Position numbers and translations under genes: made by a program. From IMG/VR virus record IMGVR_UViG_3300005805_000173, positions 1 to 40,933 of that record: a stretch of 40,933 bases of DNA; one strand, 5' to 3'. The DNA comes from a virus (Duplodnaviria > Caudoviricetes). Shown in pieces: positions 4,402 to 22,304 of the stretch (position 1 is its first letter; every line of letters starts with the position of its first letter). The notes beneath the pieces are model-generated. The model did no database searches. It saw only the letters and a list, made by a program, of their open reading frames with translations, and was not told where the DNA came from.

Positions 4402-6363
4402 TTATGGATTTGTGGTGTTTTCTTCCTGATGGTTGTTTTTGGCTGTCTTGATCCTGACAATCATGCTGACATAATACTGTGCCAGAACACCAGTGTTGCG
4501 TAGCTCCTTGCAGAGTTTTATGGCCGAATCAAACTTGTGAGCATAATAAAACTCCAGCATACGGTTGTGTTGATCTGCAATGGTCAAATACTGGGTCTGA
4601 TCCAGCACAGTGAACACTTTGATTGCTTCGCTGTTTTCTGTTTTCACAGTGTCCAGTTCCACACACTGGAACTCTTCCTTGACCTGAGCAGCCGTGTGTT
4701 CGCCCAGTATCATGTTTACACTGTACAGTTTGCATAGGTTTTCCAGCTGGTCAGCAGTTTTCACTGCATCACCCATGGCAGTATAGTTGAACTTGCGTCG
4801 ACTGCCAGTGTTGCCTACCACTGCGGTGCCAGTGTTGATACCAATATCCAAGCATAATGGTACTTCCTCAGGAGCCAGGGATTCATTGAATTTTTCCACC
4901 TGTCTGAGCATTTCCTGAGCACTACGCACAGCATGAATGGCATGCCGATCCAGATCCAGCGGTGCGTTCCAGAATGCCACTACACCATCGCCAATCAGCT
5001 TGTCCACTGTGCCGCTGTTGCGAGTCACTGAGGGTAACATCTGATCCATATACCCATGTATCAGGCGCACCAGGCCTTCGCTATTGGCTTTATAACTGGA
5101 AACAATGGCTGAAAAGTCTCTGAGGTCAGCGTAGAGCACTGTGAGTTCCTTGAGTTCTCCGTCGGTTTTCACAGCTTTGGGATCCTGCTTGAGCCGGCGC
5201 AGCACTGCTGACCCTACGCTGTCACCAAACTTTCTGGTGATGCTCCACTCTGAACTGCGTTTGCGAGCCAGGTGATAGTAGAAAGTCAGCGCAAACACAC
5301 TGGTACTGCTCAGCGTGGGCCAAACCCAATCCACTGCCAGCGAACTGGTGTTGAACAGCATCCAGGCACCGATGATCACCACACCCATGCCGCCAGCATA
5401 GACCGGAATACAGGCATAGGGCGTATTGGCTTTGGCTGCTTTCAGGATGCTGGTGATGATCAGCACACTGATCAGCATTTCCAACATGTCAGCCCAGGGC
5501 GGTGTCACAATGGTGTTGCGGGTAAACAGACTCTGAATAAACTGTGCCTGCACATGATGATTACGCTTGGCTCCCAGCGGAGTCTGGACCCAGTTGTTGA
5601 CCTGCTGAGTGGCCACACCCACCACCACAATCTTGTTTTTCACAGCAGTCAGGTCAGATCCAGTGGCGTTGATGGTATCGAACTCCTGGTCGAACCTTAC
5701 TCGCCAGCGATTCTGGTTGTTTACCACCCAGGGTTTCAGGCCAGTCAGGTTGACTGAATGAGTTTGATTCTGATGCTGAATTCGTGCTCGGGCGTCACCA
5801 GTCAGTGTACGCAAAGCCTCTACTCCCAGACTGTAGTACACACGATCATCGTTGAGCATCACCAGATCCATGCGTCTGACCACACCGTCAGCATCAGCCA
5901 CAGTGTTTGCAAACCCCACTGCGGCGGCTGCCTGACTCAGTGTGTCTACCGGATTGGCCACCTGATCTTCAGCCACACTGCGAGCCAGCACCACACCGTT
6001 ATTCTGTATGGCTGCGGCAAAAACCGGGTCAGTTTTGGCCAGATCTGGATCTTTAAACACATCCACAAACACAATTACACCAGCGCCAGCGGTTCTGAGT
6101 CGAGTGACCAGATCAGCCAGATGGCTTTTGGGCCAGGGCCATTGCCCCTGTTTCTGCGCATCTGCATCGGTAATTTCCACAATCACCACATCAGTTGCTG
6201 AGTTATGTGGGGCCACCCATTGCATCAGATCGCTGCCCCATAATGCTAATCGTTCGGTAATGTCATGTTGGCCGTATCGCAAGTAAAGCAACGCCAGACT
6301 AAGCATGGTCACAAACACTGCAAAGCGAAAACGGTACCATAAATCCCAGAGTTTAGTCTTCAT
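4402..6363 (-). CDS. CHASE2-domain membrane class III adenylate/guanylate cyclase-like protein
   Basis: N-terminal TM, CHASE2 signature GQWPWP and DADGVVRR, three TMs, cyclase motifs VLYADLRDFS, VDKLIGDGVVAFWNAP, IGINTG, YTAMGDAV. Confidence 0.92.
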   Translation of the reverse strand: MKTKLWDLWYRFRFAVFVTMLSLALLYLRYGQHDITERLALWGSDLMQWVAPHNSATDVVIVEITDADAQKQGQWPWPKSHLADLVTRLRTAGAGVIVFVDVFKDPDLAKTDPVFAAAIQNNGVVLARSVAEDQVANPVDTLSQAAAAVGFANTVADADGVVRRMDLVMLNDDRVYYSLGVEALRTLTGDARARIQHQNQTHSVNLTGLKPWVVNNQNRWRVRFDQEFDTINATGSDLTAVKNKIVVVGVATQQVNNWVQTPLGAKRNHHVQAQFIQSLFTRNTIVTPPWADMLEMLISVLIITSILKAAKANTPYACIPVYAGGMGVVIIGAWMLFNTSSLAVDWVWPTLSSTSVFALTFYYHLARKRSSEWSITRKFGDSVGSAVLRRLKQDPKAVKTDGELKELTVLYADLRDFSAIVSSYKANSEGLVRLIHGYMDQMLPSVTRNSGTVDKLIGDGVVAFWNAPLDLDRHAIHAVRSAQEMLRQVEKFNESLAPEEVPLCLDIGINTGTAVVGNTGSRRKFNYTAMGDAVKTADQLENLCKLYSVNMILGEHTAAQVKEEFQCVELDTVKTENSEAIKVFTVLDQTQYLTIADQHNRMLEFYYAHKFDSAIKLCKELRNTGVLAQYYVSMIVRIKTAKNNHQEENTTNP

Positions 6364-6406
6364 ATTACTAGTTTAGCATACCTGAATGAAAGTTATAAAT
6401 ATTTCT

Positions 6407-7144
6407 ATGCCAAATCATAACTTGTTTGCTTTTGATTTAATCAGCGATTTGTATTTGGAACAATGGCCCAGCATCGATTGGAGCACCGAACCCACCAGCT
6501 TAATTGCTGTGGTGGCTGGTGATCTGAGCTCGGATCTGGATCATACTGTACACGAACTCAAAAAAATCAGCAAACATTATCGCCAGGTGTTGTATATTGA
6601 TGGTGATCTGGAACATCAGGATCAGCTATCTGAAGTGGATGGGAATCGTGCTTATCTGGCAAAGAAACTCAATAACACCAAAAACATCACATACATGCAC
6701 GAGCATGTGCTGATCATCAATCATGTGGCATTCATAGCAGCCAATCTGTGGTGGAGCCCAGGCGAAAGCACCACCAGTATCAATGACGATGGTTGGATGG
6801 AGGAAATGCAGATGCTGACTCTGCATCACGAAGATCTCAACTATATGCGATACACTGTGCAGCGTATTCAGGACTGCAAGGATATTCAGAAATGTGTGAT
6901 AGTCAGTCACACTGTGCCCAACCGTGAACTCATACTGGGTCCAGCCCATCAGAATCTGTTCAGTGATGCCAGTGACTGGGTAGAGATTGAAGATCACATG
7001 CACAAAATCAGCACCTGGTGTTTTGGTCACTGGAATCGCTCAGTGAAAACCACTGTAAACGATTGTCAGTATGTGAGTAATCCCAAAGGAAAACCCAGCG
7101 ATTCGCTGGGTTTACAATACCATCCTATGAGAGTTTTGGTTTAG
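6407..7144 (+). CDS. calcineurin-like metallophosphoesterase fold protein (degenerate motifs)
   Basis: ISDLYLE, VAGDL, YIDGDLEH, VSHTVP, WCFGHWN, YVSNPKG; start at 6407 just after TATAAATA (6394-6401), or 6386. Confidence 0.8.
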   Translation: MPNHNLFAFDLISDLYLEQWPSIDWSTEPTSLIAVVAGDLSSDLDHTVHELKKISKHYRQVLYIDGDLEHQDQLSEVDGNRAYLAKKLNNTKNITYMHEHVLIINHVAFIAANLWWSPGESTTSINDDGWMEEMQMLTLHHEDLNYMRYTVQRIQDCKDIQKCVIVSHTVPNRELILGPAHQNLFSDASDWVEIEDHMHKISTWCFGHWNRSVKTTVNDCQYVSNPKGKPSDSLGLQYHPMRVLV

Positions 7145-7452
7145 CTTTTGGGTTCCACCTTGACCACCAGGGGATAACCATGCAGGCGGGCCAGGGTCAA
7201 AACCTCAATGGTTTTCTGTTCGGCAATTTCGTAGGGCATTTCAGCAACCACACACTGCCCTTGTTCGTGAACCCTCTGAGCCAGATTGGTCGCTGAGTCA
7301 GCATCATAGTCAAAAACTTCCACCAAGCTGCTGATGACAAATTCAAAGCTGGTCACGTCGTCATTGACATAGATCACGCGGTACAGCGGAGGTTCGGCAA
7401 TCGCAGTATTGATGGCAATTTTGGTTTTTTCAATTAGATCTGTTTTAGGCAT
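7141..7452 (-). CDS. clpS: Clp protease adaptor ClpS
   Basis: PPLYRVIYVNDDVTSFEFV, VHEQG, YEIAEQK, GYPL motifs. Confidence 0.93.
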   Translation of the reverse strand: MPKTDLIEKTKIAINTAIAEPPLYRVIYVNDDVTSFEFVISSLVEVFDYDADSATNLAQRVHEQGQCVVAEMPYEIAEQKTIEVLTLARLHGYPLVVKVEPKS

Positions 7453-7473
7453 AGTTTTTGTCAGTGTGTGGAT

Positions 7474-7494
7474 GGGCGGGGAGGATCCCCGCCC
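7474..7494. other. GC-rich hairpin between hsp20 and clpS
   Basis: GGGCGGGGA-gga-TCCCCGCCC; no U-tract follows on the minus strand, so a stabilising or attenuating hairpin rather than a classic terminator. Confidence 0.6.
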
Positions 7495-7500
7495 GGGTGT

Positions 7501-7938
7501 TTAGGCAAAGTTGATAGCCACTGTACGAGGCTTCAACGCTTCGGGCAATTTGCGCTCCAGGTCAATGGTCATGATACCATTCTTCACTGTGGCGCTGACC
7601 ACTTCAACGTACTCAACCAGGCGCCATTCCCTCTGGAATTTGCGGCGGCTGAGCCCGCGGTGGACGTAGACAGTTTCTGCTTCGGGCTGATCCTGGATCT
7701 CACCAGTGACCGTCAACATACCATTGTTCACTGTGACTTCCAGGTCCTGCTCACCAAAACCAGCAACAGCAATTTCAATGCTGTAGTGGTCATCATCACG
7801 ACGGATGATGTTGTAGGGCGGGTAGCTGACTCTGGCAGGCGAAGCTGCATTCAGTGTATCAAACAGATGATCGAAACCAATCATCCAGCGGCCCAATTCG
7901 GGGCTCAAAGCAGTAGTAGTCATTGATAGATTACTCAT
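7501..7938 (-). CDS. small heat shock protein Hsp20 (IbpA-like)
   Basis: IGFDHLF, YPPYNI, IEIAVAGF, YVHRGLSRRKF, NGIMTIDL alpha-crystallin motifs. Confidence 0.95.
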   Translation of the reverse strand: MSNLSMTTTALSPELGRWMIGFDHLFDTLNAASPARVSYPPYNIIRRDDDHYSIEIAVAGFGEQDLEVTVNNGMLTVTGEIQDQPEAETVYVHRGLSRRKFQREWRLVEYVEVVSATVKNGIMTIDLERKLPEALKPRTVAINFA

Positions 7939-7941
7939 TGT

Positions 7942-7965
7942 AGTAACTCCTTTTTAAGCAAGTTA
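7942..7965 (-). promoter_or_regulatory. ROSE-like RNA thermometer over hsp20 RBS
   Basis: mRNA UAACUUGCUUAAAAAGGAGUUA: UUGCU motif pairs with AGGA SD with a bulged G; upstream hairpin 7973-8000. Confidence 0.6.
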
Positions 7966-8001
7966 TTTTTCTATGGGAGGCCTTGTTAAGCACCTCCCAT
8001 G

Positions 8002-8036
8002 TATTTATACTAACACGCCGCAAACGGCAAAATCAA
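8002..8036 (-). promoter_or_regulatory. overlapping T4-like late promoter (TATAAATA) and sigma70-like promoter for hsp20
   Basis: TATAAATA at 8002-8009; TTGATT-18 nt-TAGTAT with TG extension. Confidence 0.55.
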
Positions 8037-8042
8037 CAGTTT

Positions 8043-8288
8043 TTACTCGGACTTGTCGGCTTTGTTGTTCATATCTTCCATGCGAGCCCGCTTGCGCATA
8101 CGAGCCAGTGCCTGACCGCGGGCACGACGTCGTAACTCGCTGGGCTTCACATAGAATTCCTTCTTTTTCAGATCCTGCAGAACCCCTTCGTTCTGCATCT
8201 TCTTCTTGAGCTTGCGCAGAGCACGCTCAAGATCACCATTCTGGACTTCCACCACAATGCCTTGTGGGATGCCATTCTTGTCTCTCAT
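8043..8288 (-). CDS. rpsU: ribosomal protein bS21
   Basis: VEVQNGDLERALRKLKKK...LKKKEFYVKPSELRRR, the bS21 signature. Confidence 0.9.
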   Translation of the reverse strand: MRDKNGIPQGIVVEVQNGDLERALRKLKKKMQNEGVLQDLKKKEFYVKPSELRRRARGQALARMRKRARMEDMNNKADKSE

Positions 8289-9526
8289 TTTGCTTTTATC
8301 ACCTTGGTTGATTTAGACTGCTTATAATACATGACAGGATCGGCATCACTGGCAAACACTTCAGCAGTGAATTGGATCCTGTCAATCTTTTGTTGTTTGT
8401 ATCTGGGAATTGCAAACAGATGTGGTATCAGTTTGTATTCCAGTATGCTACGCAGCGCACGAGCACCGGTTTTCATACCAATGGCTTGCTGAGCAACATA
8501 ATCCAACGCATCGGCAGTGAATTCAATGCCGATGCCATCAGTTTCAAAATAAAATCTGTACTGCTCTATCAGATTGTGTTTGGTATTGGTTAGTACCTCT
8601 ACCAGATCCTGAACACTCAGTGCCTGAGTATGCACTGTGACTGGGAATCTGCCCACAAATTCTGGTATCATGCCAAACTTGATCAGATCTTCATTGGTTG
8701 CACCTGAGGTGTCGGTTTTGATTTCCACAGTCTTATCAAACCCAATGCGATTCTCACGATGGCGGCGGTTTACAATTTCCTGCAAGCCCACAAAAGCGCC
8801 ACTGGCTATGAACAGTATACCGCCAGTGTCAATATCCACTGTGCTGTTGCCCGGATGCTTCTTGCCGTTTTCAGCCGGCACTGTGACCACAGCACCTTCC
8901 ACCAGCTTGAGCAGAGCCTGTTGCACACCTTCACCACTGATATCACGATTGGCGCTGGAATGCTCGTTTTTCTTGCCAATCTTGTCCACCTCATCCAGAA
9001 ACACTATGCCACGTTGTGTGCGTTCCACATTGCCGTCGGCTGCTGCTAGCAATCGGCTGATTACTGATTCTACGTCTTCGCCCACATAACCAGTTTCAGT
9101 CAGGCTGGTTGCATCGGCTATCACAAAAGGCACATCCAGGAACTCTGCGATAGTTTTAGCTAACAGTGTTTTACCGCTGCCTGTGGGTCCCAACATCAAA
9201 ATGTTACTCTTTTCAATCCTGACTGCTGAACTGTAGAACAATCTCTTGTAGTGATTGGCTACTCCCACACTCAGCGTCATTTTGGCAGCTTCCTGACCAA
9301 TCACATGCTGGTCCAGATACTGTTTGATTTTCATGGGATTGGTATGTTTGACGGCTCGCTTGCTTTTTTTGATCTCGGCATTTTGTTGCTCAGTGAGCAG
9401 ATTTTTGCATTTGATCACGCACTCATCACATATAGCATGTGAACCACCTATGATCAGCTTGTTGACTTCGTTGCGGGATTTATCACAGAAGCCACAAAAG
9501 TTTGGGATGGACGAGTCTTTGTTCAT
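8285..9526 (-). CDS. clpX: Clp protease ATP-binding subunit ClpX
   Basis: C4 zinc finger CGFC..ICDEC, Walker A GPTGSGKT, GYVGEDVE pore loop, Walker B FLDEVDK, IGF loop, GARALR; start 9526 or 9541. Confidence 0.97.
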   Translation of the reverse strand: MNKDSSIPNFCGFCDKSRNEVNKLIIGGSHAICDECVIKCKNLLTEQQNAEIKKSKRAVKHTNPMKIKQYLDQHVIGQEAAKMTLSVGVANHYKRLFYSSAVRIEKSNILMLGPTGSGKTLLAKTIAEFLDVPFVIADATSLTETGYVGEDVESVISRLLAAADGNVERTQRGIVFLDEVDKIGKKNEHSSANRDISGEGVQQALLKLVEGAVVTVPAENGKKHPGNSTVDIDTGGILFIASGAFVGLQEIVNRRHRENRIGFDKTVEIKTDTSGATNEDLIKFGMIPEFVGRFPVTVHTQALSVQDLVEVLTNTKHNLIEQYRFYFETDGIGIEFTADALDYVAQQAIGMKTGARALRSILEYKLIPHLFAIPRYKQQKIDRIQFTAEVFASDADPVMYYKQSKSTKVIKAK

Positions 9527-9557
9527 GCTGTTATTTAACATAATCCATCAGGTTATT

Positions 9558-10217
9558 TCATTTTCCCAACACATTTTCCTTTTTCAGATACTTTTTGACC
9601 TGACTGAGTTGCTGGGTGTTTAGATCATCCATTTCAATGATACCGTTGACCAGCTGTTCTATCAGTTGTTCCACACTGAGATCTTCATTGTAAACCACCC
9701 AGTTTTTGCCATTGTAGCGATACATAGTGTTGGGAGTCATATCCACTCGCAGAAACTGATCACCAGTTTTGGGTTTGGTTGGAAATGCGGTGCCAAACCG
9801 GGTACTAACTGGGGCATCATTGATCAGGATGTCAGATTCTGATATCAATGCTTCCAGCTTCTGGATCAACGGATTGTCTGTGTATACAATCTTTTCCACT
9901 TCCACAATTCGCTCTGGTCCAGGAATTTCTTTGATAACCTCAACTTCTTTGATGACGTCAACTGGTACCTCTTTGATGATTTCTACCGGTACTTCCCTGA
10001 TGACTTCCACTTCTACTGGTACTTCCCTGATGACTTCTATTTCTTTGATGACTTCAACTGGTACCTCTTTGATGATCTCTACAGGTACTTCCCTAATAAC
10101 TTCCACTTCTACTGGTACCTCTTTGATAACTTCAACTGGTACCTCTTTGATAACTTCTATAGTTTGCGGAGCAGCTGACTCAGGCGATTCCGCCAAGTGG
10201 TCTGCTCCGGTTGCACA
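9558..10217 (-). CDS. C-terminal extension (EVPVEVIKE repeats + globular tail), probably reached by -1 frameshift from upstream ORF
   Basis: Open -1 frame through the slippery site; the first usable start codon is an upstream TTG buried in a hairpin; ~70 aa of VPV/VIKE repeats. Confidence 0.65.
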   Translation of the reverse strand, partial: CATGADHLAESPESAAPQTIEVIKEVPVEVIKEVPVEVEVIREVPVEIIKEVPVEVIKEIEVIREVPVEVEVIREVPVEIIKEVPVDVIKEVEVIKEIPGPERIVEVEKIVYTDNPLIQKLEALISESDILINDAPVSTRFGTAFPTKPKTGDQFLRVDMTPNTMYRYNGKNWVVYNEDLSVEQLIEQLVNGIIEMDDLNTQQLSQVKKYLKKENVLGK

Positions 10218-11017
10218 AAAGGGACAGGTTCCTGGCTGACCTCCTGGGTGATTTCAACTTCTTGCTCATCCAGTTCCAGTTTGCGATTTACTGCCAACAT
10301 CAATGCCAAAGCCAGGGGGTCAAACACAGCAACCAACACTATGATTACCCAGCGAACAGCACTCTCCAGTACATCAGCGCCAGCCTGGTCACCATAGATC
10401 AGTGCAGCAATATATTTGACTGGTCCCACTTCGGCTTCCACCTGCCTGACTTTTGCTGCAATAGGTGCTCGCTGAGCTTGTAGATCCTGGATACGACGTT
10501 GAGCTAGTTCGTTGTCCTTCTGCAATTTGGATCGTTCAGCTGATTGACTGCGACGTATTTGCACTGCTCGTTCAGCACCACGTTCATCCCGACTGCGACC
10601 CAATATCTCAGTGACACTGTTGTCCATCTGAGTTAACACCAGTTTGTTGGCAGCAATGTTGTCACGTTCGGTTTTGATTTTTTCATCAATCAGAGCAACC
10701 TCAGCCTGCACGTCAGCAGTAGGCACTGCCTGATCCAGGTGAGCTTTGCTTAGAAATCCAAAAATACCCATACTAGTGATCAGCATCAACACCACCATGC
10801 TGATCACCAGATAAATTTTCATTATGGCACCCACACGGGCCCAATTTTTTCTCAACCAGATAGTGGTTACAACTTTGCCCACTTCCAATGCGGTGCCCAT
10901 GATAATAATGGGCACCTTGGCAGCGGCAAATATTGCAGTTAAACCACTTACACTGTAAAAAGCACTTACTGAACTAATCAACAGTGCAATCAATAAAGCT
11001 GCATAATCAAGCATCAT
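10157..11017 (-). CDS. multi-TM membrane protein with coiled-coil region
   Basis: Three N-terminal TMs, long coiled coil, fourth TM (WVIIVLVAVFDPLAL); start 11017 follows stop of previous gene at 11022. Confidence 0.8.
   Translation of the reverse strand: MMLDYAALLIALLISSVSAFYSVSGLTAIFAAAKVPIIIMGTALEVGKVVTTIWLRKNWARVGAIMKIYLVISMVVLMLITSMGIFGFLSKAHLDQAVPTADVQAEVALIDEKIKTERDNIAANKLVLTQMDNSVTEILGRSRDERGAERAVQIRRSQSAERSKLQKDNELAQRRIQDLQAQRAPIAAKVRQVEAEVGPVKYIAALIYGDQAGADVLESAVRWVIIVLVAVFDPLALALMLAVNRKLELDEQEVEITQEVSQEPVPFVQPEQTTWRNRLSQLLRKL
10167..10223 (-). other. candidate programmed -1 ribosomal frameshift signal
   Basis: In-frame C_CCU_UUU heptamer (10223-10217), 7-nt spacer, stem-loop CGGAGCAG...CUGCUCCG with inner GGCG/CGCC stem. 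Confidence 0.65.
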
Positions 11018-11021
11018 AGTT

Positions 11022-14000
11022 TTAATAGGGGTCAAACAGGATCATGTGATCGTTGTGTTTGGTCGTTGCGCTCCAATTTATACTTCCGGTACTGTAGGTT
11101 ATTGTATAAGTGGTGGTTTTGTAGTATTCATTACTGTCAGTAGTGCCTCTGATTGCAACAGTATCACCATTATTAATTGTGGTACTGGTTCCCACATTGC
11201 TTCCATTTTTAAATATCACTGCTGTAGCATCACCATTGTCATTGGTTAGTGTAATGGTTATGGGCAAGTCAAAATCACTGGCTGTTAGAGTATTGCTGGT
11301 TACTACTTCTGATAGTTGACGATCTCGGACATCAATAAAGTCTCCTGGAGTCCATACAACACCAGTTCTGGCAGCTCGAGTAACGTATCTAAAAGTATCA
11401 GATACTACCGAGGGACCTGCAATCAGTGTAACTGTAAATATTCTGACAGAACTATATGCACCAGAACTAGTGGCCCGAATAGCAACACTTTGTCCTGGTA
11501 CCACCACAGTGGTGGATAATCCTGTATCTACACCATTAAGCACTATGGTTGCACTGTTATCCACAGTTAGGGTAGCACTACTCCCTTCAAAACTCAATGC
11601 TATGGTATTGGTGTTTATGGTCTGATTTATTTCTAAACCAGTACGATCTTCAAAATCCGGTGTAATTAATACTGGTGGTCTGGTAGCTAAAGTAAAGCTA
11701 TCAACTACTCCTGTTCCCAGCGTTACTCGATAAGTGTGTGTGGTAAAAAATGTTGATGGAGATGTAAGGCGGCATTTGATTTTATTGCCTAAGTATACAA
11801 AACTACTGTATCCAGTCAGTACATATCCTGCTCCAGAATCTATCAATAAATTTCCAGCAGGTCCATATGTTCCATTGACCAATTGCTCCAGTTTAACTGG
11901 AACTCCTGCACAACTGGAGATGCCACTTACTGTTATATCATTGGTTTCAACTGTGGTGCTGACTTCCAGACCCGATTGATTTGCAAAATCAAAAGCATCA
12001 GCAACTATGTCATTGGCAGCAACTCTGACAGTAAATGTGTCTTCTACTACATCATATCCGCCACCAGGACCATCTGGAAACCCTGGTGGAGAACATCTGG
12101 CACGGAACCTGACAACAGTCTGAGCGCCATTATTGCCACAAGGAGTACGAATGATAGGAGTTATAATGTCACCAGGCAATACTCCCACTCGAAGTGAATT
12201 GGGAGTATGGGGCAGAGTGCTGGGTATCAAAAATGTAGAGGTAGTAGCTCCACGAGTTCTTCGCATGCCTACCACATACAGATTATCATAATACTGTGGA
12301 GAGGTTGGTGATCCAGGAGGATCTAGAAACCAATTATCAGCAAACAGCGCCATGTTCCATTCACCCAAAAACGATCCAGTAACGGCGGATGCTGAGGCAT
12401 CTAGTTGTGTATCTGCTGCCTGTAATCCCAAATCTGGAAAGGAAAAACTGGGTGATACTATAATTGGACCAGTATTAACTGTGATGCTTACCTGTCCAAA
12501 GTTGCTAACACCATTGGGTCCCTCTACCTGATAAGTAACTGCATCACCACCACTGAAGTTAGCTGGAGGTGTATACCGATATTCCAGCGGGTTGGATGTG
12601 CCGGCTGATACAAAGGTGCCACCAGCAGCACGAGTGGGGCTGACATATTTTACTCGTGTAAAGGTACCACTGGTCACCACCAAAGTCACTGGATTATTTG
12701 AGCTGTTTTTGTCAACTGTGATGGCAAAACTGCTGACAACTGGCGGAGGTGGTGGAGGAGGTGGCGGAGCAGGACTGGGCGTAACCCTGATGATTATCTG
12801 GCCAAATTGGCTGGTGCCGTGAGGACCACGAACCGAATAGGTAACAGAATCACCACCCACATAACCAGCAAGCGGTGTATAGTAATACTGTAATGGATTG
12901 CTGGTGCCAGCAAGCACAAAGGTACTGCCAACAACATAGGTGGGGCTGATAGAATTCACCACAGTGTAGTCACCAGTGACTGGCAATGTTACCAGATTGT
13001 TGGTGCTGTTTTCCACCACTGAAATGGTTAAATCTCCAGCAATGGGTGCTGCGCCAGGTTCACCAGGTGGCGGGGGTGGTGGTTCTGGTTGATCTGGGTT
13101 TCTAGAAGCTCTGTCAAAATTCACCAGGAATATACACACAGTCTGACCCTGAGCGTTAACTGAGCTGCTTATGGGAGTCACACTGTTGACTTTATAATAA
13201 GTCGCAGGTGGATAACCGTATTGTATTGGATTGGCTGTGGTGATTTCACCAAACTGAGTGATGTTGGAAACCTGCGCTGACAGATTGGTTTCCAGAGTAT
13301 ATTGACCTGGACTGGATCCATAGCTTAGACCACTGGGTATGCCAGTGTCCTGATAGGCCAACGGAGCACAATTGGTGACTGGTGTGACTGGTGGGGGTGG
13401 CGAAGTTACCTGAGCAGGACCTGGAGGTGTTCCACCAGGCACTGGAGTATCCAGTGGTATCCATCCGATTGGAAATCCTAAATTTTGATAATATCGAGGA
13501 GTTCCGCTGGCATCATATGCTAATATGACAGCACCCACTGCATAGTCAAAACTATTATAGTCACCTATGAATCTGGGAGCAGGCGCTGGACCAGTGGGAT
13601 TGGCCGGAGCAATAGGCCCAGTAATATCCGAAGGACCAGTAGGCGAAGACGGAGGTGTCGTAATCTCAGTCCATCCAAACTGTGTTGACTGATAGAACCT
13701 CACTACGCCGTCAGCACCAGTGGCTGTGACCACTGTGCCCACTGGTAAACTTTGAGTATCATAATAGCTCAACGGCGGTGGAGCACTGCTGGTGGGTTGC
13801 GGCGGTGCAACCACTGGTGCAGGCTGAACTGGTGCAGGCGGAGGCTGATAGGTATTGGGATCTTCAGTGGGCCCAATTGGGTCTATAGGTACTACATTTC
13901 CGCCACCATCAATAATTTGCCCATCTACGCCAGACCCCACTGGTTCAATCACTGGTTCAATCACTGGTTCCACTATGATCTCTATGGGCTCTTCAGGTGG

Positions 14001-14390
14001 ATTGACTATGATCTCTATAGGCTGTTCTATTACTGGATTAACCTCTTCAGGAGGCGGAGGTTGATATATACTGGGATTTTCAACATTTCCAACAGGATCA
14101 ACAATAATTTCACCACCAGTGTTATCAATGATCTGATTTTCCACACCAGAATACACTGGCTCCGGTAGAGCCACTGGTTCAGGCGGAGGTTCAGGTGTCG
14201 GCTCTGGCTCAGGCGGATAACTGATTATTTCCACTGGCTCTGGTATTACCGGCGGGTCAGGCGGAGGTTCAGGTGGTTGATAAACACTAGCGGTATCCTC
14301 AATGGGAGGCTGTCCAGTATTCTGGTCTGGTAGTGGAAACCCACTATCATAAATCTCATTCTGAGCCGCGTATAAATCTCTTTCGTCCAT
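11022..14390 (-). CDS. large Pro-rich virion/adhesin-like protein with Ig-like repeats
   Basis: 1122 aa; Pro/Glu-rich N-terminus, two related ~80 aa Ig/cadherin-like repeats (YTPxxxxxGGDxVTY), three beta-rich C-terminal repeats. Confidence 0.7.
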   Translation of the reverse strand: MDERDLYAAQNEIYDSGFPLPDQNTGQPPIEDTASVYQPPEPPPDPPVIPEPVEIISYPPEPEPTPEPPPEPVALPEPVYSGVENQIIDNTGGEIIVDPVGNVENPSIYQPPPPEEVNPVIEQPIEIIVNPPEEPIEIIVEPVIEPVIEPVGSGVDGQIIDGGGNVVPIDPIGPTEDPNTYQPPPAPVQPAPVVAPPQPTSSAPPPLSYYDTQSLPVGTVVTATGADGVVRFYQSTQFGWTEITTPPSSPTGPSDITGPIAPANPTGPAPAPRFIGDYNSFDYAVGAVILAYDASGTPRYYQNLGFPIGWIPLDTPVPGGTPPGPAQVTSPPPPVTPVTNCAPLAYQDTGIPSGLSYGSSPGQYTLETNLSAQVSNITQFGEITTANPIQYGYPPATYYKVNSVTPISSSVNAQGQTVCIFLVNFDRASRNPDQPEPPPPPPGEPGAAPIAGDLTISVVENSTNNLVTLPVTGDYTVVNSISPTYVVGSTFVLAGTSNPLQYYYTPLAGYVGGDSVTYSVRGPHGTSQFGQIIIRVTPSPAPPPPPPPPPVVSSFAITVDKNSSNNPVTLVVTSGTFTRVKYVSPTRAAGGTFVSAGTSNPLEYRYTPPANFSGGDAVTYQVEGPNGVSNFGQVSITVNTGPIIVSPSFSFPDLGLQAADTQLDASASAVTGSFLGEWNMALFADNWFLDPPGSPTSPQYYDNLYVVGMRRTRGATTSTFLIPSTLPHTPNSLRVGVLPGDIITPIIRTPCGNNGAQTVVRFRARCSPPGFPDGPGGGYDVVEDTFTVRVAANDIVADAFDFANQSGLEVSTTVETNDITVSGISSCAGVPVKLEQLVNGTYGPAGNLLIDSGAGYVLTGYSSFVYLGNKIKCRLTSPSTFFTTHTYRVTLGTGVVDSFTLATRPPVLITPDFEDRTGLEINQTINTNTIALSFEGSSATLTVDNSATIVLNGVDTGLSTTVVVPGQSVAIRATSSGAYSSVRIFTVTLIAGPSVVSDTFRYVTRAARTGVVWTPGDFIDVRDRQLSEVVTSNTLTASDFDLPITITLTNDNGDATAVIFKNGSNVGTSTTINNGDTVAIRGTTDSNEYYKTTTYTITYSTGSINWSATTKHNDHMILFDPY

Positions 14391-16789: not shown

Positions 16790-18106
16790 TTAGATTTTCT
16801 CCCCAGCCGCAAATCCGCGCCAGCGTTCAAACCGCGGAAACCGCATGCTATAGCTTCCGTCCTGATTCTGCGTGACAGCGTCAGCTTTGACTTCCACAAC
16901 CTGTCCAATCACCTGGCTTCGGGCCGCCCAAATTTGATCGCGATCAGCGTCAGTAAAACCAGAGCCAGTGTTAACACAAATTGTCTTTCCGTCATGCTCT
17001 CCTTCACAAACCAATGCACCCAACCGTCCTGCGTTCTTGCCGGTACCCTCTTCCACAGCCACCACAGTGAGGTCCACAGTGATAAACGGTTTGAGCTTGA
17101 GCCAATGGGTGCTACGCTTGCACTCATAGCCAGCGTCCACGTCCTTCAACATGATTCCTTCGTACCCGCCATCAATGGCTTGACGATTGATTGAATTGAA
17201 CTGCTGACGACCCACTTCAGTGTCCAGGTCCACAGTACACCCATCCAGGATCTTGACGTTGGGCAGCACAGATTCAAACTCTGCATACCAAGCCTTCAAT
17301 ACCTGGCTTCTGACCTGCTGCGGAGTGTCTGAACGACCTGCACGAAACTCCTCCAAGCTCAGGTTGTCGAACAGGTACAGCACTGCATCCTGGCTCTGCA
17401 CATTGCTCTTGCGATGCACCTGCCGCATCAGATCCTGGAAGCTGGCGCTCATCACTTCACCATCAAATACCCAAGCATGTTCCATGCTCTGGGCCATCTG
17501 CTGCATCTGCGTTACAATGTGGGGGAAGTTCTGAAGCTCTTTACCATTGCGAGTAAACATGTTCACTCTGCCGTCTGGATACACAATGGTAATCACCCGG
17601 ACACCATCCAGCTTGACTTCCAGTTGCTTGCGGCCTCGCACCTTGCCCTCGTGATTCAGGCTGTCGTGGGCCAGCTGGCATTCAAACACCGGAATGGCAT
17701 ACAAGGGGCGATTGGTCTTCTTGACCACCGTGTTCACTGTCTTTTCGGTGACGCCGCAACGCAGGTCACGGATCAGGATACGCCGATACCAGCAGTTCCA
17801 TTGTTCCTGGGTGGCCTGCATCATCAGCTGATTCACAGCATCGCGAGCAGCATTGCCCGTGAGCTTGCGATTAGTCAGCTGCTGAACCACATTGCTGAAA
17901 GCAGTCCAGCTCAGCCCAACACCATCAGTACCAGCATGCTCCGGCACCTGCTTGATGCCAAAAGTTTCAAAATTGTCCAGCGCCATGCGCAACCCGGCAA
18001 ACAGTTCACCATTGCCAGCACGGGATTCAGCAGCAATCACGCCTTCTTTGAACAAGCGGCTATTGTTGCTTTCCAGCTTCTGTATCACGCTCCACGGTGT
18101 GTTCAT
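16790..18106 (-). CDS. ATP-dependent DNA ligase
   Basis: Adenylation motif EVKLDGVR, FDGEV, EGIMLK, WLKLKP, OB-fold GSGFTD, RFPRF. Confidence 0.95.
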   Translation of the reverse strand: MNTPWSVIQKLESNNSRLFKEGVIAAESRAGNGELFAGLRMALDNFETFGIKQVPEHAGTDGVGLSWTAFSNVVQQLTNRKLTGNAARDAVNQLMMQATQEQWNCWYRRILIRDLRCGVTEKTVNTVVKKTNRPLYAIPVFECQLAHDSLNHEGKVRGRKQLEVKLDGVRVITIVYPDGRVNMFTRNGKELQNFPHIVTQMQQMAQSMEHAWVFDGEVMSASFQDLMRQVHRKSNVQSQDAVLYLFDNLSLEEFRAGRSDTPQQVRSQVLKAWYAEFESVLPNVKILDGCTVDLDTEVGRQQFNSINRQAIDGGYEGIMLKDVDAGYECKRSTHWLKLKPFITVDLTVVAVEEGTGKNAGRLGALVCEGEHDGKTICVNTGSGFTDADRDQIWAARSQVIGQVVEVKADAVTQNQDGSYSMRFPRFERWRGFAAGEKI

Positions 18107-18112
18107 ATTCTT

Positions 18113-18141
18113 AGTATAGCATTGTGCTGTTGGGATGTCAA
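18113..18141 (-). promoter_or_regulatory. sigma70 promoter, leaderless ligase mRNA
   Basis: TTGACA-17 nt-TATACT with TGc extension; ATG 6 nt downstream. Confidence 0.8.
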
Positions 18142-18157
18142 CCTCTGAGGGAAACTT

Positions 18158-18367
18158 TCAACACCATCTCAACATGAACATGGTCAGATCCTGCTCACGT
18201 TGGAAGCATAGATTGCATTGATTGTCAAGTGCCCACGAATCGTAACCAAACTGCTCATTACACCAAAACAGTGCATTTTGATCAATGGGAACTCTGACTT
18301 CGCGGCCAGTGGCGTCAACACCAAGTCTGTTGTGTCGGACAGAAACTTTGAATGGATAAGGGTCCAT
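18158..18367 (-). CDS. FxLRW-family small protein
   Basis: WCNEQFG..W...CFQREQDLTMFMLRWC. Confidence 0.8.
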   Translation of the reverse strand: MDPYPFKVSVRHNRLGVDATGREVRVPIDQNALFWCNEQFGYDSWALDNQCNLCFQREQDLTMFMLRWC

Positions 18368-18374
18368 ATGTGTT

Positions 18375-18404
18375 ATTATAGCACTCTGAATTGAGCGTTG
18401 TCAA
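18375..18404 (-). promoter_or_regulatory. sigma70 promoter, leaderless
   Basis: TTGACA-18 nt-TATAAT with TGc extension; ATG 7 nt downstream. Confidence 0.8.
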
Positions 18405-18721
18405 GTCTTCAACGTGAGCCAAACCATGTGTTTTTCCAGCTGAGCAACCACTTGATCCATGGTTGGGTTGTCAGGAACGAAGTAGGCTTGATTGAATTTT
18501 TTGCGTCTTTCTGCCCGAAAACGGTACGGATTCATCCATCCTCGAATTTGATGCTGAACAGATCCGCCCACAGTGCCCCACAGGATTATAGAACCTGTGT
18601 TAGACATGCTTCCGAAGATTATGTCTTTCTCAAAAATGTTGGCTTGAGCCCAAAACAGCAGTTTTTCTTTTGAGCCTTGCCGAGATGGCCGAACTAAAAT
18701 GCTGTAATAATCCACTTGCAT
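18401..18721 (-). CDS. hypothetical protein (possibly WGR-like)
   Basis: 106 aa; IILWGTVGG...KKFNQAY loosely resembles WGR domains; SD GGAG. Confidence 0.5.
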   Translation of the reverse strand: MQVDYYSILVRPSRQGSKEKLLFWAQANIFEKDIIFGSMSNTGSIILWGTVGGSVQHQIRGWMNPYRFRAERRKKFNQAYFVPDNPTMDQVVAQLEKHMVWLTLKT

Positions 18722-18760
18722 GATGCTAGCTCCACATCAATATAAACATCACGGTATTTT

Positions 18761-18994
18761 TCAATAAACATCCATATCCTCTTCTTCTGTACAGTCGCCC
18801 CACCTCAACTTGAAAAATATCAGGTCTTGTTTGTCTCTGAAGAAAACGTCGGGCCATCCCCAATTCCAGCGTTCTCGGTCAGTGTCATCAAAATTGGCTT
18901 TACACCAGTGGATAATTTCAAACCACTGATCAAACTCAAAGGCGTTGCAAACGGCTTTGTACCGATACCGTATATAACCATTAGGAATTTCCAT
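18761..18994 (-). CDS. FxLRW-family small protein
   Basis: WCKANF..RWNWGWPDVFFRDKQDLIFFKLRW + acidic tail; start MEIPNG at 18994. Confidence 0.8.
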   Translation of the reverse strand: MEIPNGYIRYRYKAVCNAFEFDQWFEIIHWCKANFDDTDRERWNWGWPDVFFRDKQDLIFFKLRWGDCTEEEDMDVY

Positions 18995-19214
18995 AGTCAA
19001 TCCACTTCAATTGAAACCACATCAGATCTTGTTCGTCTCTGAAAAGAAAATTGGGCCACGACCAAGCCCAACGTTGCCATTCTTCACCATATGTTTGAAC
19101 GGCCCAGACATTCATTTCTTTCCATTGATCAAAGTCGGCGTCGGCACACCTGAATTTATATTGATAAGATATATATCCCGCTGGTGTTTCTACTTTGAAC
19201 CTTTTCTTTGCCAT
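18981..19214 (-). CDS. FxLRW-family small protein
   Basis: RWAWSWPNFLFRDEQDLMWFQLKW. Confidence 0.8.
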   Translation of the reverse strand: MAKKRFKVETPAGYISYQYKFRCADADFDQWKEMNVWAVQTYGEEWQRWAWSWPNFLFRDEQDLMWFQLKWIDYGNS

Positions 19215-19215
19215 G

Positions 19216-19437
19216 CTAAGACCACCTCAATTGAAAAAACAGTAGGTCTTGTTCATTATTGAAATAAATTTCAAGCCATCCTTTAGCCCATCGTGCTCTG
19301 TCATCGCCAAAATTATCGTTGCACCAACGAACTATGTCAAACCATTGGTTCATGTCAACATTGCTTTTGTTGACGCGATGAGAATAGGTCCGGTATCCTT
19401 CTGGCGTATGAATTTTAAACCGTGTTTTAGGTGTCAT
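19216..19437 (-). CDS. FxLRW-family small protein
   Basis: WCNDNFG..RW...YFNNEQDLLFFQLRWS. Confidence 0.8.
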   Translation of the reverse strand: MTPKTRFKIHTPEGYRTYSHRVNKSNVDMNQWFDIVRWCNDNFGDDRARWAKGWLEIYFNNEQDLLFFQLRWS

Positions 19438-19624
19438 GCTCAGACCACTTCAATTGAAACCACATCAGATCTTGTTCATGAACGAATACCAGCAATGGAT
19501 AATCCCAGCCCCAGCGGCGGCCCACTTTTTCAGAACCAAAATGCTCTCTGCACCAGTCAATCATTTCAACAAAATCATCCATTTTACAGCCAGAGTGAAC
19601 AGAAATGTAATACTGTTCTATCAT
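19427..19624 (-). CDS. FxLRW-family small protein
   Basis: WCREHFG..RWGWDYP..FVHEQDLMWFQLKW. Confidence 0.8.
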   Translation of the reverse strand: MIEQYYISVHSGCKMDDFVEMIDWCREHFGSEKVGRRWGWDYPLLVFVHEQDLMWFQLKWSEHDT

Positions 19625-19625
19625 A

Positions 19626-19838
19626 TCACTGCCACCTCAACACAAAAAACACAGCATCCTCAGAATGCTTGAACAGAAATCCTCTGATAACAAAACACCA
19701 AGTGTTCTGGGCATATTGATGATCGCACCAATTTGCCATGGACATAGCCAAGTCTTCATCAAACATAGATTGGTAGTCCAACTTGACAAAGTAGGGATAT
19801 TCAGGATGAAAATCAGGATTTGATGCCTCAAGTACCAT
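19626..19838 (-). CDS. FxLRW-family small protein
   Basis: YPY...WCDHQY...FLFKHSEDAVFFVLRWQ; start MVLEAS at 19838. Confidence 0.8.
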   Translation of the reverse strand: MVLEASNPDFHPEYPYFVKLDYQSMFDEDLAMSMANWCDHQYAQNTWCFVIRGFLFKHSEDAVFFVLRWQ

Positions 19839-20037
19839 ACTCTTCCCAGAACAAAACAAAAAATGTAACGTGTTCGGCTAGTTTGAAACGAACGCCTTCG
19901 GGATCCCAGTACCAATTGTGAACACCAAACTGCTCATCGCACCAGGAAAACATTGCAACCCGCGTCTCCCAGCCAGATTTATATCGCTTGCTAACAGCCA
20001 GATATGGATAAGTTTTTAGAACTTGCTCGGAAGCCAC
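19828..20037 (-). CDS. FxLRW-family small protein
   Basis: YPY...WCDEQFGVHNWYW...RFKLAEHVTFFVLFW; GTG start overlapping upstream TAG. Confidence 0.75.
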   Translation of the reverse strand: MASEQVLKTYPYLAVSKRYKSGWETRVAMFSWCDEQFGVHNWYWDPEGVRFKLAEHVTFFVLFWEEYGT

Positions 20038-20198
20038 TAGAGCCACCTCAATCGGAACATGGTAGCGTCGGCTTCTGATTCAAACCAAACCGTTTCATGA
20101 TAAGGATTCAGTGACCAGCGTCCAGTAGCGAACTGTTTACACCAATCATTCATTTCTACATAAACTCTAAACGGTGCTAGCGGCAGATTCATTTTCAT
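20037..20198 (-). CDS. FxLRW-family small protein (53 aa, not in ORF track)
   Basis: Hand-translated MKMNLPLAPFRVYVEMNDWCKQFATGRWSLNPYHETVWFESEADATMFRLRWL. Confidence 0.8.
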   Translation of the reverse strand: MKMNLPLAPFRVYVEMNDWCKQFATGRWSLNPYHETVWFESEADATMFRLRWL

Positions 20199-20199
20199 A

Positions 20200-20382
20200 C
20201 TATTGCCACCTCAACATAAACAGTATAGCATCTTTTTCGTGTCTGAAACGAATTGATTCAGCGCCGTATAACCAATTGTCAGTGTTTTCGAAAGTTTCCA
20301 CACACCAATCGTATCGTTTGGCTCGCTCGTTCCATGAACTTGCGCCGGTAGGAAGTTCTACTTTGTAAGGGAAAGTGAACAT
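20200..20382 (-). CDS. FxLRW-family small protein
   Basis: RYDWCVETFENTDNWLYGA..RFRHEKDAILFMLRWQ. Confidence 0.8.
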   Translation of the reverse strand: MFTFPYKVELPTGASSWNERAKRYDWCVETFENTDNWLYGAESIRFRHEKDAILFMLRWQ

Positions 20383-20565
20383 TTATAACCACCTCAGCGA
20401 GTACAGCACTGCGTCTTTTTCATGTTTGAAATAAAAACAAGTGGCGCCGTACATCCAATTGTCAAAATTCCCAAACGTTGCCACACACCAGTCATATCTT
20501 TTAGACCAGCTTTCAGTCAGTGGAACACTCACATGATATGGATATTTTTCGGCTAAACTGGGCAT
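20383..20565 (-). CDS. FxLRW-family small protein
   Basis: RYDWCVATFGNFDNWMYGA..YFKHEKDAVLYSLRWL; close paralog of neighbour 20200-20382. Confidence 0.8.
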   Translation of the reverse strand: MPSLAEKYPYHVSVPLTESWSKRYDWCVATFGNFDNWMYGATCFYFKHEKDAVLYSLRWL

Positions 20566-20566
20566 A

Positions 20567-20791
20567 CTAGGACCACCTTAGATGGAACAGCACAGCATCT
20601 TGCTCAGAGGTAAACCAAAATTGATCCACATTTGGTTCTACTCGACAGTTCACACTCGAGTACCATTTGTCTTTAAGGGTTTGCTTACACCAATTTTCCA
20701 CTTCTTCGAGTTTAGAACAAAGGAGAAGTTTGTCAAACTGAACATTAAATTCATACGGAGGAAATTTGTTGTATGCTTTTAGCACTAACAT
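20567..20791 (-). CDS. FxLRW-family small protein
   Basis: WCKQTL..KW...FWFTSEQDAVLFHLRWS; ATG overlaps upstream TGA. Confidence 0.8.
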   Translation of the reverse strand: MLVLKAYNKFPPYEFNVQFDKLLLCSKLEEVENWCKQTLKDKWYSSVNCRVEPNVDQFWFTSEQDAVLFHLRWS

Positions 20792-20970
20792 CAGGACCAC
20801 CTTAGCCCAAACATCATTGCATCTGTCTCCGATTCAAATCTGAAAACATGACAGCCACCGACCACAGCACACCCAAACAAATCTATTGCGTTTTGTTCAC
20901 ACCAGTCCAGAATTTCATCAGCTTCGGTCAATGCCAACGAACGCCCCATATTGATTTTGTGTGGATACAT
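20791..20970 (-). CDS. FxLRW-family small protein (59 aa, not in ORF track)
   Basis: Hand-translated MYPHKINMGRSLALTEADEILDWCEQNAIDLFGCAVVGGCHVFRFESETDAMMFGLRWS. Confidence 0.8.
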   Translation of the reverse strand: MYPHKINMGRSLALTEADEILDWCEQNAIDLFGCAVVGGCHVFRFESETDAMMFGLRWS

Positions 20971-20971
20971 G

Positions 20972-21205
20972 CTAGCACCATCTCAGCTTGAACATTACGA
21001 GATCAGCTTCTTTCCTGAAGTAAATCTCCTTTGTGATTATCGCCATGGTCCAACTGCCGGGTTCCAGATGCTCGTCACACCATGCAGCCAAACGGTTGAA
21101 ATGCTCGATGTGTTCATGCACCAGGCTATTTCGATCAAATCGTATGCCCACGCTATAAGGATACTCTGCAGAGTGTACAGGTTTGAACGTAATGCATTCA
21201 GGCAT
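20972..21205 (-). CDS. FxLRW-family small protein
   Basis: YPY...WCDEHL..GSW...YFRKEADLVMFKLRWC. Confidence 0.8.
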   Translation of the reverse strand: MPECITFKPVHSAEYPYSVGIRFDRNSLVHEHIEHFNRLAAWCDEHLEPGSWTMAIITKEIYFRKEADLVMFKLRWC

Positions 21206-21214
21206 AGTGAACCT

Positions 21215-21697
21215 TTAGCGATAGAGTTCGTGCATAAACGCCCGACGTTCCTGTTCAGCTTCCTGCTCCGCATAGGCTGCCTTGTAAACACACCGGCAAG
21301 TGGGCAGTTCTTCACCGCAGCATTCGCAGTCTGCAAACCGCTTCTGTACCGGAGCAGGCTTGGCCGGCACTGCTTTGGCAGCAGCATCTTCCTCGATGAT
21401 CCGGAGAATCTGCCCGGCATACTTGCAGATAGCCGGCTGATCGCGCCAAGGACGCCACACCATTTTGAGCTGCTTTTCGCTCAGAGGCTTGTTGGGAAAT
21501 TTGATCACAAATTCCGCCAAGCGGCTGAACCAAAGAGCATCTGCAGGCTGGAAGCCACGCAGGTTGTGATTGCGAGTCTGGTGGGAAGCCTGTTCGTCCT
21601 GGGTTTGGCGCTGGTACAAACGCACCAGCGCACGACGCACCCAACGTTCGTCAGTAGCCAACTTGTGGCGGATGAAGTCTTCGGTGTAGCGTTCCAT
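21215..21697 (-). CDS. hypothetical phage protein with C-terminal Cys cluster
   Basis: Start MERYTEDF at 21697 just downstream of promoter; RALVRLYQRQTQDEQ..GF..DA motif; CECC..CRC. Confidence 0.7.
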   Translation of the reverse strand: MERYTEDFIRHKLATDERWVRRALVRLYQRQTQDEQASHQTRNHNLRGFQPADALWFSRLAEFVIKFPNKPLSEKQLKMVWRPWRDQPAICKYAGQILRIIEEDAAAKAVPAKPAPVQKRFADCECCGEELPTCRCVYKAAYAEQEAEQERRAFMHELYR

Positions 21698-21706
21698 TAC
21701 TCTTTT

Positions 21707-21735
21707 AGTATAGCAAATGGTGTGCAGGGTGTCAA
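21707..21735 (-). promoter_or_regulatory. sigma70 early promoter heading the FxLRW array operon
   Basis: TTGACA-17 nt-TATACT with TGc extension. Confidence 0.8.
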
Positions 21736-21752
21736 CCAAATTTTCGCAACTC

Positions 21753-21777
21753 TAAGTTGTTGGAAATCAATAACTTA
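21753..21777. promoter_or_regulatory. imperfect palindrome containing IHF consensus
   Basis: TAAGTTGTTG-gaaat-CAATAACTTA; AATCAATAACTTA matches WATCAANNNNTTR. Confidence 0.5.
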
Positions 21778-22017
21778 TTGTTTGATGCTGCGCCAGTTCT
21801 GTTCAGTGGCGATGGCGTAGGGACCATATTCCCACTGATCAGTGTTGCCCACAGCGTGACACCATTCGGTTTCTATTATACCCGTAAAACAGCGTGAGCC
21901 CCGGGTCCAGCCAGCATTGCGATTGCTGACTCGCATCCCGCGGCGGGCAGCTGATTGGGTCTGATACTCAGCAATTTTTTCAGCAGTGGTGCGGTGAAAC
22001 AATATCCAGTGTTGCAT
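21775..22017 (-). CDS. hypothetical early protein
   Basis: 80 aa ORF directly downstream of consensus promoter. Confidence 0.65.
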   Translation of the reverse strand: MQHWILFHRTTAEKIAEYQTQSAARRGMRVSNRNAGWTRGSRCFTGIIETEWCHAVGNTDQWEYGPYAIATEQNWRSIKQ

Positions 22018-22023
22018 AATCTG

Positions 22024-22052
22024 AGCATAGCAAACAACACAACAGGTGTCAA
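22024..22052 (-). promoter_or_regulatory. sigma70 promoter, leaderless
   Basis: TTGACA-17 nt-TATGCT with TGc extension; ATG 6 nt downstream. Confidence 0.75.
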
Positions 22053-22061
22053 ATTTAATTT

Positions 22062-22136
22062 TGGAGCCGGAGGAGGGATTTGAACCCTCAACCCCCTGAT
22101 TACAAATCAGGTGCTCTGCCGTTGAGCTACCCCGGC
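22062..22136 (-). tRNA. tRNA-Thr (UGU)
   Basis: GCCGGGGTAGCTCAACGGCAGAGCACCTGATTTGTAATCAGGGGGTTGAGGGTTCAAATCCCTCCTCCGGCTCCA: cloverleaf, anticodon stem CCTGA/TCAGG around TGT, GTTCAAATC T-loop, encoded CCA. Confidence 0.95.
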
Positions 22137-22142
22137 TAAACC

Positions 22143-22304
22143 CTACTTCTTTGTTTCCTGTATAAAGCCAATGATCACACTGGGGCCAAACATTCCACGC
22201 ACAATGTTTCTGGCTGCATTCACATCACTGGCTTGGACCACGATCTTCTGTAGAATCTGTCCAGGAATGGTGTAGCTGACTTCAAAGTTTCTGTAAATAG
22301 GCAT
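22143..22304 (-). CDS. hypothetical protein (53 aa, not in ORF track)
   Basis: Hand-translated MPIYRNFEVSYTIPGQILQKIVVQASDVNAARNIVRGMFGPSVIIGFIQETKK; promoter TTGATT-18-TATAAT at 22318-22347. Confidence 0.65.
   Translation of the reverse strand: MPIYRNFEVSYTIPGQILQKIVVQASDVNAARNIVRGMFGPSVIIGFIQETKK

Follow-up and report, generated by a model that had tools for sequence, protein, structure and literature searches.

Gene organization of the locus

The window, meaning the whole stretch of 40,933 nucleotides analysed here, is a 40.9-kb virus record with a completeness of about 11%, and the sequencing runs in which it was found are mostly from freshwater. It encodes ribosomal protein S21, Hsp20, ATP-dependent protease subunits, an ATP-dependent ligase, and virion structural proteins, and such a gene set has been described near bS21 in large phages (PMC9723584, the main text of which does not contain the word "frameshift"). 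The features discussed below lie on the minus strand and are collected in Table 1. ORF1 is overlapped by an ORF in the −1 frame, referred to as ORF2, which extends from 10253 to 9558; of its 231 codons, 31 precede the stop codon of ORF1. The name of the neighbouring clpX-like gene was read off the sequence, and its PHROGs label is ATPase/ATP-dependent protease. Together, 7141–9541 and 655–1278 carry genes for clpX-like, ribosomal protein S21 (8043–8288), Hsp20, and ClpS-like products, a ClpP-like gene follows at some distance, and this cluster is a phage-encoded proteostasis set. On the other side of ORF1, a minus-strand gene (11022–14390) encodes a 1122-aa proline-rich protein with Ig-like domains (Big_9). 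Because ORF1 has no Shine–Dalgarno (SD) sequence and the stop codon of this gene lies 4 nt before the ORF1 start, translational coupling of the two genes is possible.

Elsewhere in the window, a minus-strand gene (4402–6363) encodes a 653-aa membrane protein of a PHROG family of unknown function, which looks from its sequence like a sensor with a cyclase-type domain and adjoins a metallophosphoesterase gene (6386–7144), the sole clear plus-strand gene. The region 18100–22300 is gene-poor, with few convincing long ORFs. Promoter and terminator scans remained at chance level, and the single Rfam match (E 0.92) is also attributable to chance.

Table 1. Positions of the genes and of the predicted recoding elements in the window.
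Feature	Positions	Strand	Description
ORF1, short product	10157..11017	-	286 aa; ATG 11017, TAG 10159-10157
CAGGAGG, SD-like	10240..10246	-	16 nt 5' of the heptamer; kept in L083 and L241; role doubtful
-1 frame after the slip site	9558..10223	-	221 codons; predicted 486-aa long product
Slippery heptamer C_CCU_UUU	10217..10223	-	ORF1 frame GTC CCT TTT = V P F; Pro266-Phe267
Spacer, 7 nt	10210..10216	-	heptamer to hairpin
3' hairpin, predicted stimulator	10167..10209	-	lower stem GGAGCAG/CTGCTCC
GGAG 10208-10205 and TTG 10196-10194	10194..10208	-	possible ORF2 start; inside the hairpin, not conserved
Dual-coding stretch	10157..10195	-	frame 0: basic amphipathic C-terminal helix and TAG; frame -1: linker into the repeats
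EVPVEVIKE-type repeats, long form	9885..10160	-	copy number differs among relatives
C-terminal domain, long form	9561..9884	-	small beta module (FGxxFPxxPxxGDxF...Y.NG..W) and two helices
clpX-like gene	8285..9541	-	directly 3' of ORF2; order common to L083, L162, L243, L246

Predicted products

A slip at the heptamer would join 265 residues of ORF1 to 221 residues of the −1 frame, giving a 486-aa protein, and the product sizes of about 286 and 486 aa, as well as the junction peptide, had been correctly read in the original prediction. By hydropathy, ORF1 begins with three hydrophobic segments, which are followed by a long helical hairpin (approximately residues 100–208), a fourth hydrophobic segment (approximately 212–245), an acidic linker, and a basic amphipathic tail. 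The AlphaFold2 model is all helical (mean pLDDT 76.5), and in it the long hairpin connects the third hydrophobic segment to the fourth. Basic residues follow segments 2 and 4, and application of the positive-inside rule to this arrangement suggests four inner-membrane helices, with the coiled-coil hairpin in the periplasm and the tail in the cytoplasm. With this topology, the frameshift would exchange only the cytoplasmic end of the protein. The hydrophobic moment of the short tail (0.62) is within the top 2.4% of 11-mers from 33 window proteins. Of 17 short forms that were scored, 15 end in a basic amphipathic tail (moment 0.49–0.81), and two forms of the nine-adenine (A9) type described below have a value of 0.28. 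The basic amphipathic helix of the short form would lie on the membrane, whereas the long form carries a long acidic repeat spacer with a module that is found also in virion structural proteins.

The C-terminal domain matches phrog_11591, a family of virion structural proteins, in 65 of 71 aligned members, and a fold search with this domain gave weak matches to tail-fibre proteins. When structure models of the ORF1 and ORF2 halves were searched separately, the same 547-aa chain was the best match for both. A weak match to DUF4407 (PF14362) was obtained in 46 of 62 aligned homologs (E ≤ 0.01, best 1.9e-5) and is absent from the window protein. Searches of solved structures by sequence and by fold gave no significant match. 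A weak Pfam/PHROGs match of ORF1 to Tetraspanin (E 0.01) fell below the cut-off, and generic coiled-coil matches (BAR domains, pore-forming proteins, and ABC transporters) were discarded. The best guess at a function, although more likely wrong than right, is a membrane scaffold of mixed short and long subunits in late infection, in which the shift would determine the number of subunits that carry the docking module.

ORF2 as the C-terminus of the family

Over the last 120 codons of ORF2, comparison with L083, a metagenome locus with 94% identity, gave 31 synonymous and 7 non-synonymous codon changes, or 33 third-position and 12 other nucleotide changes; ORF2 is under purifying selection. In the sister clade P0025–P0031 (seven proteins, 79–80% identity), the same repeats and domain are fused in frame to the N-terminal part. 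After removal of duplicates and open-ended loci, 161 of 240 loci remained, in which the C-terminal domain was detected in frame 0 (61 loci) or in frame −1 (9 loci), never in frame +1, and was undetected in 91. As judged from these sequences, ORF2 is the normal C-terminus of the family, and there must be some way of reaching it. Two products are not essential everywhere, because the sister clade, as seen from its proteins only, lacks the short form, and 61 of the 161 loci are fused.

The slippery heptamer and its hairpin

The overlap of the two frames, the in-frame heptamer, the 7-nt spacer, and the stem-loop all lie at the coordinates originally reported. The base of the hairpin is an 8-bp stem (CGGAGCAG, 10209–10202, with CTGCTCCG, 10174–10167), to which an inner stem is added. 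Its folding energy is −24.8 kcal/mol (z −3.07; 2 of 200 shuffled sequences were equally stable), a trimmed 46-nt version is more exceptional (z −4.55; 0 of 200 as good), and approximately 0.07% of 2,726 45-nt windows fold as strongly. Across 41 minus-strand ORFs with 11,376 codons in total, there are 21 in-frame XXXYYYZ heptamers. Of these, C_CCU_UUU precedes the strongest fold (−24.8 versus −16.0 kcal/mol for the runner-up) as well as the longest −1 extension (221 versus at most 79 codons), and it is the only such heptamer in the tail of ORF1. It also spells one of only seven Pro-Phe pairs in 33 window genes, although these codons alone prove little since CCT and TTT are common. The second-ranked heptamer, C_CCT_TTG at 38463 on the minus strand, is followed by the −16.0 fold and a 50-codon −1 frame and sits 67 codons before the stop codon of the 38259–40859 gene; this combination is probably due to chance.

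According to PMC4066793, C_CC.U_UU.U shifts at more than 0.10% in Escherichia coli in the absence of stimulators, motifs made up of pyrimidines only are favoured, and the tetramer C_CC.U is itself prone to shifting. The same source places the beginning of frameshift hairpins 4–10 nt past the motif, a range that includes the 7 nt observed here, and reports that in E. coli A_AAG is a stronger motif than U_UUY; the long form may, therefore, be scarce. The AGGAGG noted in the original prediction is indeed present 16 nt upstream of the heptamer (10245–10240). Its suggested role as an internal SD stimulator is not supported, because internal SD sequences that stimulate −1 shifts lie 9–14 nt upstream (PMC5009743) and because the SD-like CAGGAGG is itself able to pair with the heptamer.

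A programmed −1 ribosomal frameshift with predicted 286-aa and 486-aa products is the explanation favoured for this gene, with a probability of roughly 80%. Most ribosomes would read ORF1 to the TAG at 10157 and release the 286-aa form. A fraction of them could stall at the hairpin and slip back by one base on C_CCU_UUU, with tRNA-Pro moving from CCU to CCC and tRNA-Phe from UUU to UUU, and would then read on to 9558 to yield the 486-aa form as a minor product.

Persistence across samples and alleles

The possibility of an artefact was examined with assembled contigs from 8 of the 24 listed runs, which represent eight studies (seven without X1, possibly the source run); RNA runs X18–X20 (8–14% of words) were left out. 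Contigs from all eight runs cross the heptamer without a frame-changing gap, and junction-spanning contigs are free of gaps apart from a 3-nt insertion that a diverged allele carries upstream of the site. The assembly indel against which the original prediction had advised a check was thus absent, as judged from assembled contigs rather than raw reads. The metagenome loci L082 (100% identity) and L083 show the identical split, and the heptamer is unaltered in both loci and in all contigs examined.

The site is covered by only two clearly different DNA alleles. Between the window and L083, the 12 differences in 10160–10229 all spare the heptamer and the lower 7 bp of the stem (p 0.009), and one of the 12 affects them if the eighth pair is counted (p 0.043), values that have to be read with the stem boundary having been set after seeing the data and with dual coding alone also expected to conserve bases. 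The hairpin of L083 is weaker and not significant relative to shuffled sequences (−17.4, z −0.99; by a second measure −16.6, z −1.53). The outermost pair is lost, the upper stem is variable, and the lower stem GGAGCAG/CTGCTCC is retained. Of the single changes, that at 10198 keeps its pair as G-U, that at 10200 is in a loop, and that at 10191 disrupts the apical pair.

Conservation in homologs

A protein search retrieved 21 further short proteins of 283–287 aa with 82–100% identity, two of which, at 99–100% identity, are perhaps the window's own. For comparison of the tails, 24 short forms, including two that are N-terminally short, were reduced to 13 distinct tails. All 13 contain Pro-Phe at −21/−20 from the stop codon, have Glu at −16, and end in LLRKL; the residue before Pro-Phe is only V, D, or A, and codons of all three can end in C. 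The conserved positions coincide with the heptamer and with both sides of the lower stem. Residues −14 to −10, which the upper stem covers, are by contrast free to vary, and indels occur upstream of Pro-Phe. As to the proposed test in homologs, Pro-Phe covers the heptamer in 13 of 13 tails, and no compensatory change in the stem was found in the two alleles. A split with a similar tail recurs at 63–78% identity.

In viral contigs, a search for the exact junction pattern gave 0 matches, a query with the C-terminal domain yielded none that were confirmed, and the clade pattern was found at two loci of one sequence type; genome contigs contained no locus of that pattern. L246 begins past the junction. 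The GenBank phages retrieved (15 records) are all below 43% identity. A first pass over 80 viral loci had suggested that all homologs are single-frame, a view that was overturned by the frames found behind A runs.

Alternative explanations

Translation of ORF2 as a separate protein, from its own start at TTG 10196 or at a GTG in the repeats, made accessible as ribosomes terminating on ORF1 melt the hairpin and re-initiate, would also reach the C-terminal domain, and re-initiation by ribosomes that have finished the preceding gene is known from the MS2 lysis gene. The original claim that the −1 ORF lacks a good start is not wholly correct in this respect, as the TTG is preceded at 8 nt by GGAG with an anti-SD duplex energy of −5.8, like ordinary window genes; such motifs occur in 15 of 33 window genes, and gene callers do annotate ORF2 separately (P0122 and P0127). 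However, the codon is CTG in L083, an allele that recurs with this CTG in runs X13 and X14. An NTG in the −1 frame further requires that frame 0 encode Trp or Cys, neither of which is found in 5 of the 13 distinct tails, where this start is impossible. A TTG start would also leave the invariant Pro-Phe nine codons upstream unexplained, and the domain is tethered to the membrane by fusion in 61 loci. Separate translation is accordingly very improbable. Addition of one base by RNA polymerase at C3T4 is a shade less probable again: the A9 runs of the family occur in two different phases, the pattern expected of transcriptional slippage, but the run in the window consists of only four T's in place of the approximately nine A's or T's reported to be efficient (PMC5009743), and the site is followed on its 3' side by the hairpin at a ribosome-sized spacing.

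A −1 shift elsewhere in the 31-codon overlap, or unprogrammed leakage, could be imagined from the L241 group, which would shift without this heptamer, and from the misfit of the SD sequence with the site. It is highly improbable, given that the sole heptamer of the tail is correctly spaced from the strongest hairpin and is invariant at the protein level in 13 of 13 tails. The least probable reading of all, and one already largely refuted, is a fixed truncating mutation with a dead ORF2 remnant, or an assembly error. In its favour, the closest outside clade is fused, and the region contains repeats of the kind that fragment assemblies, but the eight runs agree without exception, the frame of ORF2 stays open with a synonymous bias, and the split recurs at 63–78% identity. 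None of the three contrary results named beforehand was obtained: contigs carried no indel, the homologs were not all single-frame (the 21 further short forms being joined by split relatives in DNA), and initiation at the TTG conflicted with the relatives. The −1 frameshift interpretation is thus supported at the level of sequence comparison.

Recoding signals elsewhere in the family

The tails of the family contain, in 99,459 nt, 29 A runs with a length of exactly nine, compared with one in 662,361 nt of flanking sequence. These runs are in phase 0 at 12 loci, in phase 2 at 16, and in phase 1 at one, and the two main phases swap the default tail. Both tails are conserved at loci with A9 in phase 0 or 2 (L005, L016, L021, L091, L167, L222, and others), and L005 and L091 have near-identical N-terminal parts and opposite default tails. 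Nine A's or T's slip efficiently, whereas T5C5 needs context (PMC5009743), and the A9 sites of these distant relatives are, from their sequence, probably sites of polymerase slippage. No A9 run was found in the window's clade. At A9 sites with a −1 extension, downstream folds are weak (−2.7 to −12.3 kcal/mol, compared with −25.3 kcal/mol for the window by the same measure). L323 and L325 are two further −1 cases. The remark in the original prediction that a membrane protein upstream of clpX is an unusual target is less apt: many members of this gene family show recoding into two products, in most cases at A9 runs, so that the window gene is less singular.

In L241 (= L162, L242), 71% identical to the window, the domain is in frame −1 without an A9 run and without the heptamer. 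Upstream of its clpX (L241:1800–1873), a C_CCU tetramer is followed after 7 nt by an unrelated hairpin that spans the stop codon (−23.7, z −3.07), and this tetramer is the candidate slip site of L241. A small CCCC/GGGG hairpin is also present in L241 past the SD-like CAGGAGG. A tree built from 44 N-terminal parts joins the short clade to the fused P0025/P0029 and to P0048, which has a long branch (97/95). Beyond this group are short forms with similar amphipathic ends (P0032–P0037, P0043, P0046, and P0047), as well as P0040/44/45, the tails of which run via KKK into apparent out-of-frame repeats (protein only); L241 is one of these outside forms. The tree and L241 indicate that the split probably arose before the window's clade did, that the sister clade lost it by fusion, and that the signal changed.

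The tails of P0032–P0034, P0037, P0059, and P0103 contain QKKT, EKKT, or QKKS, followed by apparent out-of-frame repeats or an amphipathic end; these are possibly A-run sites in a third phase. L321 (28% identity) ends just past an A-rich run and has a 223-codon −1 frame that is unlike the usual C-terminal domain.

Comparison with known recoding systems

The closest parallel is dnaX, in which tau and gamma arise by −1 ribosomal frameshifting in E. coli, whereas Thermus thermophilus relies on a run of nine bases at which transcription slips (PMC5009743 and PMC6787027). As in that case, one gene gives short and long products with a shared N-terminus, a heptamer with a 3' hairpin in one lineage is replaced by a nine-base run in another, and in some bacteria the longer form comes from the shift, as proposed for the window gene. 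In contrast to dnaX, the window gene encodes a phage inner-membrane protein, its heptamer is C_CCU_UUU instead of A_AAA_AAG, the spacing of its SD-like sequence is 16 nt, and many members of its family are simply fused. The A9 sites of the family itself share with the window the same −1 entry into the repeats and C-terminal domain and the basic tail of the short form, while the window has a heptamer and a strong hairpin and no A run. By analogy with dnaX across bacteria, the new element would be the use of a ribosome-type signal by the window's clade, which lacks A9.

Lambda gpG/gpGT (PMC5009743 and PMC10885494) is likewise a case of low-level −1 frameshifting in a double-stranded DNA phage near the end of the first ORF, which adds a C-terminal domain, and here, too, the ratio of the two forms likely matters. 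Unlike gpG/gpGT, the window gene is not located between the major tail and tape-measure genes and has four hydrophobic segments, and no tail-chaperone homology was found with Pfam/PHROGs. The signals of the IS3 family (X_XXZ_ZZN or Z_ZZN with a hairpin; PMC4066793) resemble that of the window in motif class, 7-nt spacing, and G-C-rich stem base, and L241 fits the C_CC.U tetramer class, but the window gene is no transposase. West Nile virus NS1' (PMC11507841) has the identical C_CCU_UUU heptamer and a C-terminally extended product; its eukaryotic ribosome, pseudoknot stimulator, and lack of homology leave convergence only.

Significance

The present case adds a well-supported predicted −1 frameshift in phages beyond tail chaperones and capsid/tail extensions, with a heptamer of the pyrimidine type that is seldom cited in bacteria. 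In the open-access literature, no paper was found on recoding in this membrane-protein family. As different signals yield the same two products within one family, independent evidence is provided that both forms are useful. A further implication is that databases mis-annotate this abundant family as truncated genes and orphan repeat proteins. It is tentatively proposed, as an idea more easily doubted than accepted, that this widespread membrane-protein family of large phages reinvented its recoding signal more than once because selection holds its two cytoplasmic tails at a fixed ratio, by polymerase slippage on nine A's in most lineages and by ribosomal slippage on C_CCU_UUU or C_CCU with unrelated hairpins in the clpX-adjacent lineage, and that this ratio tunes a mixed scaffold that docks virion parts via its tail-fibre-like module. 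If this is true, the family would offer a natural series for investigating why genes switch between transcriptional and ribosomal recoding.
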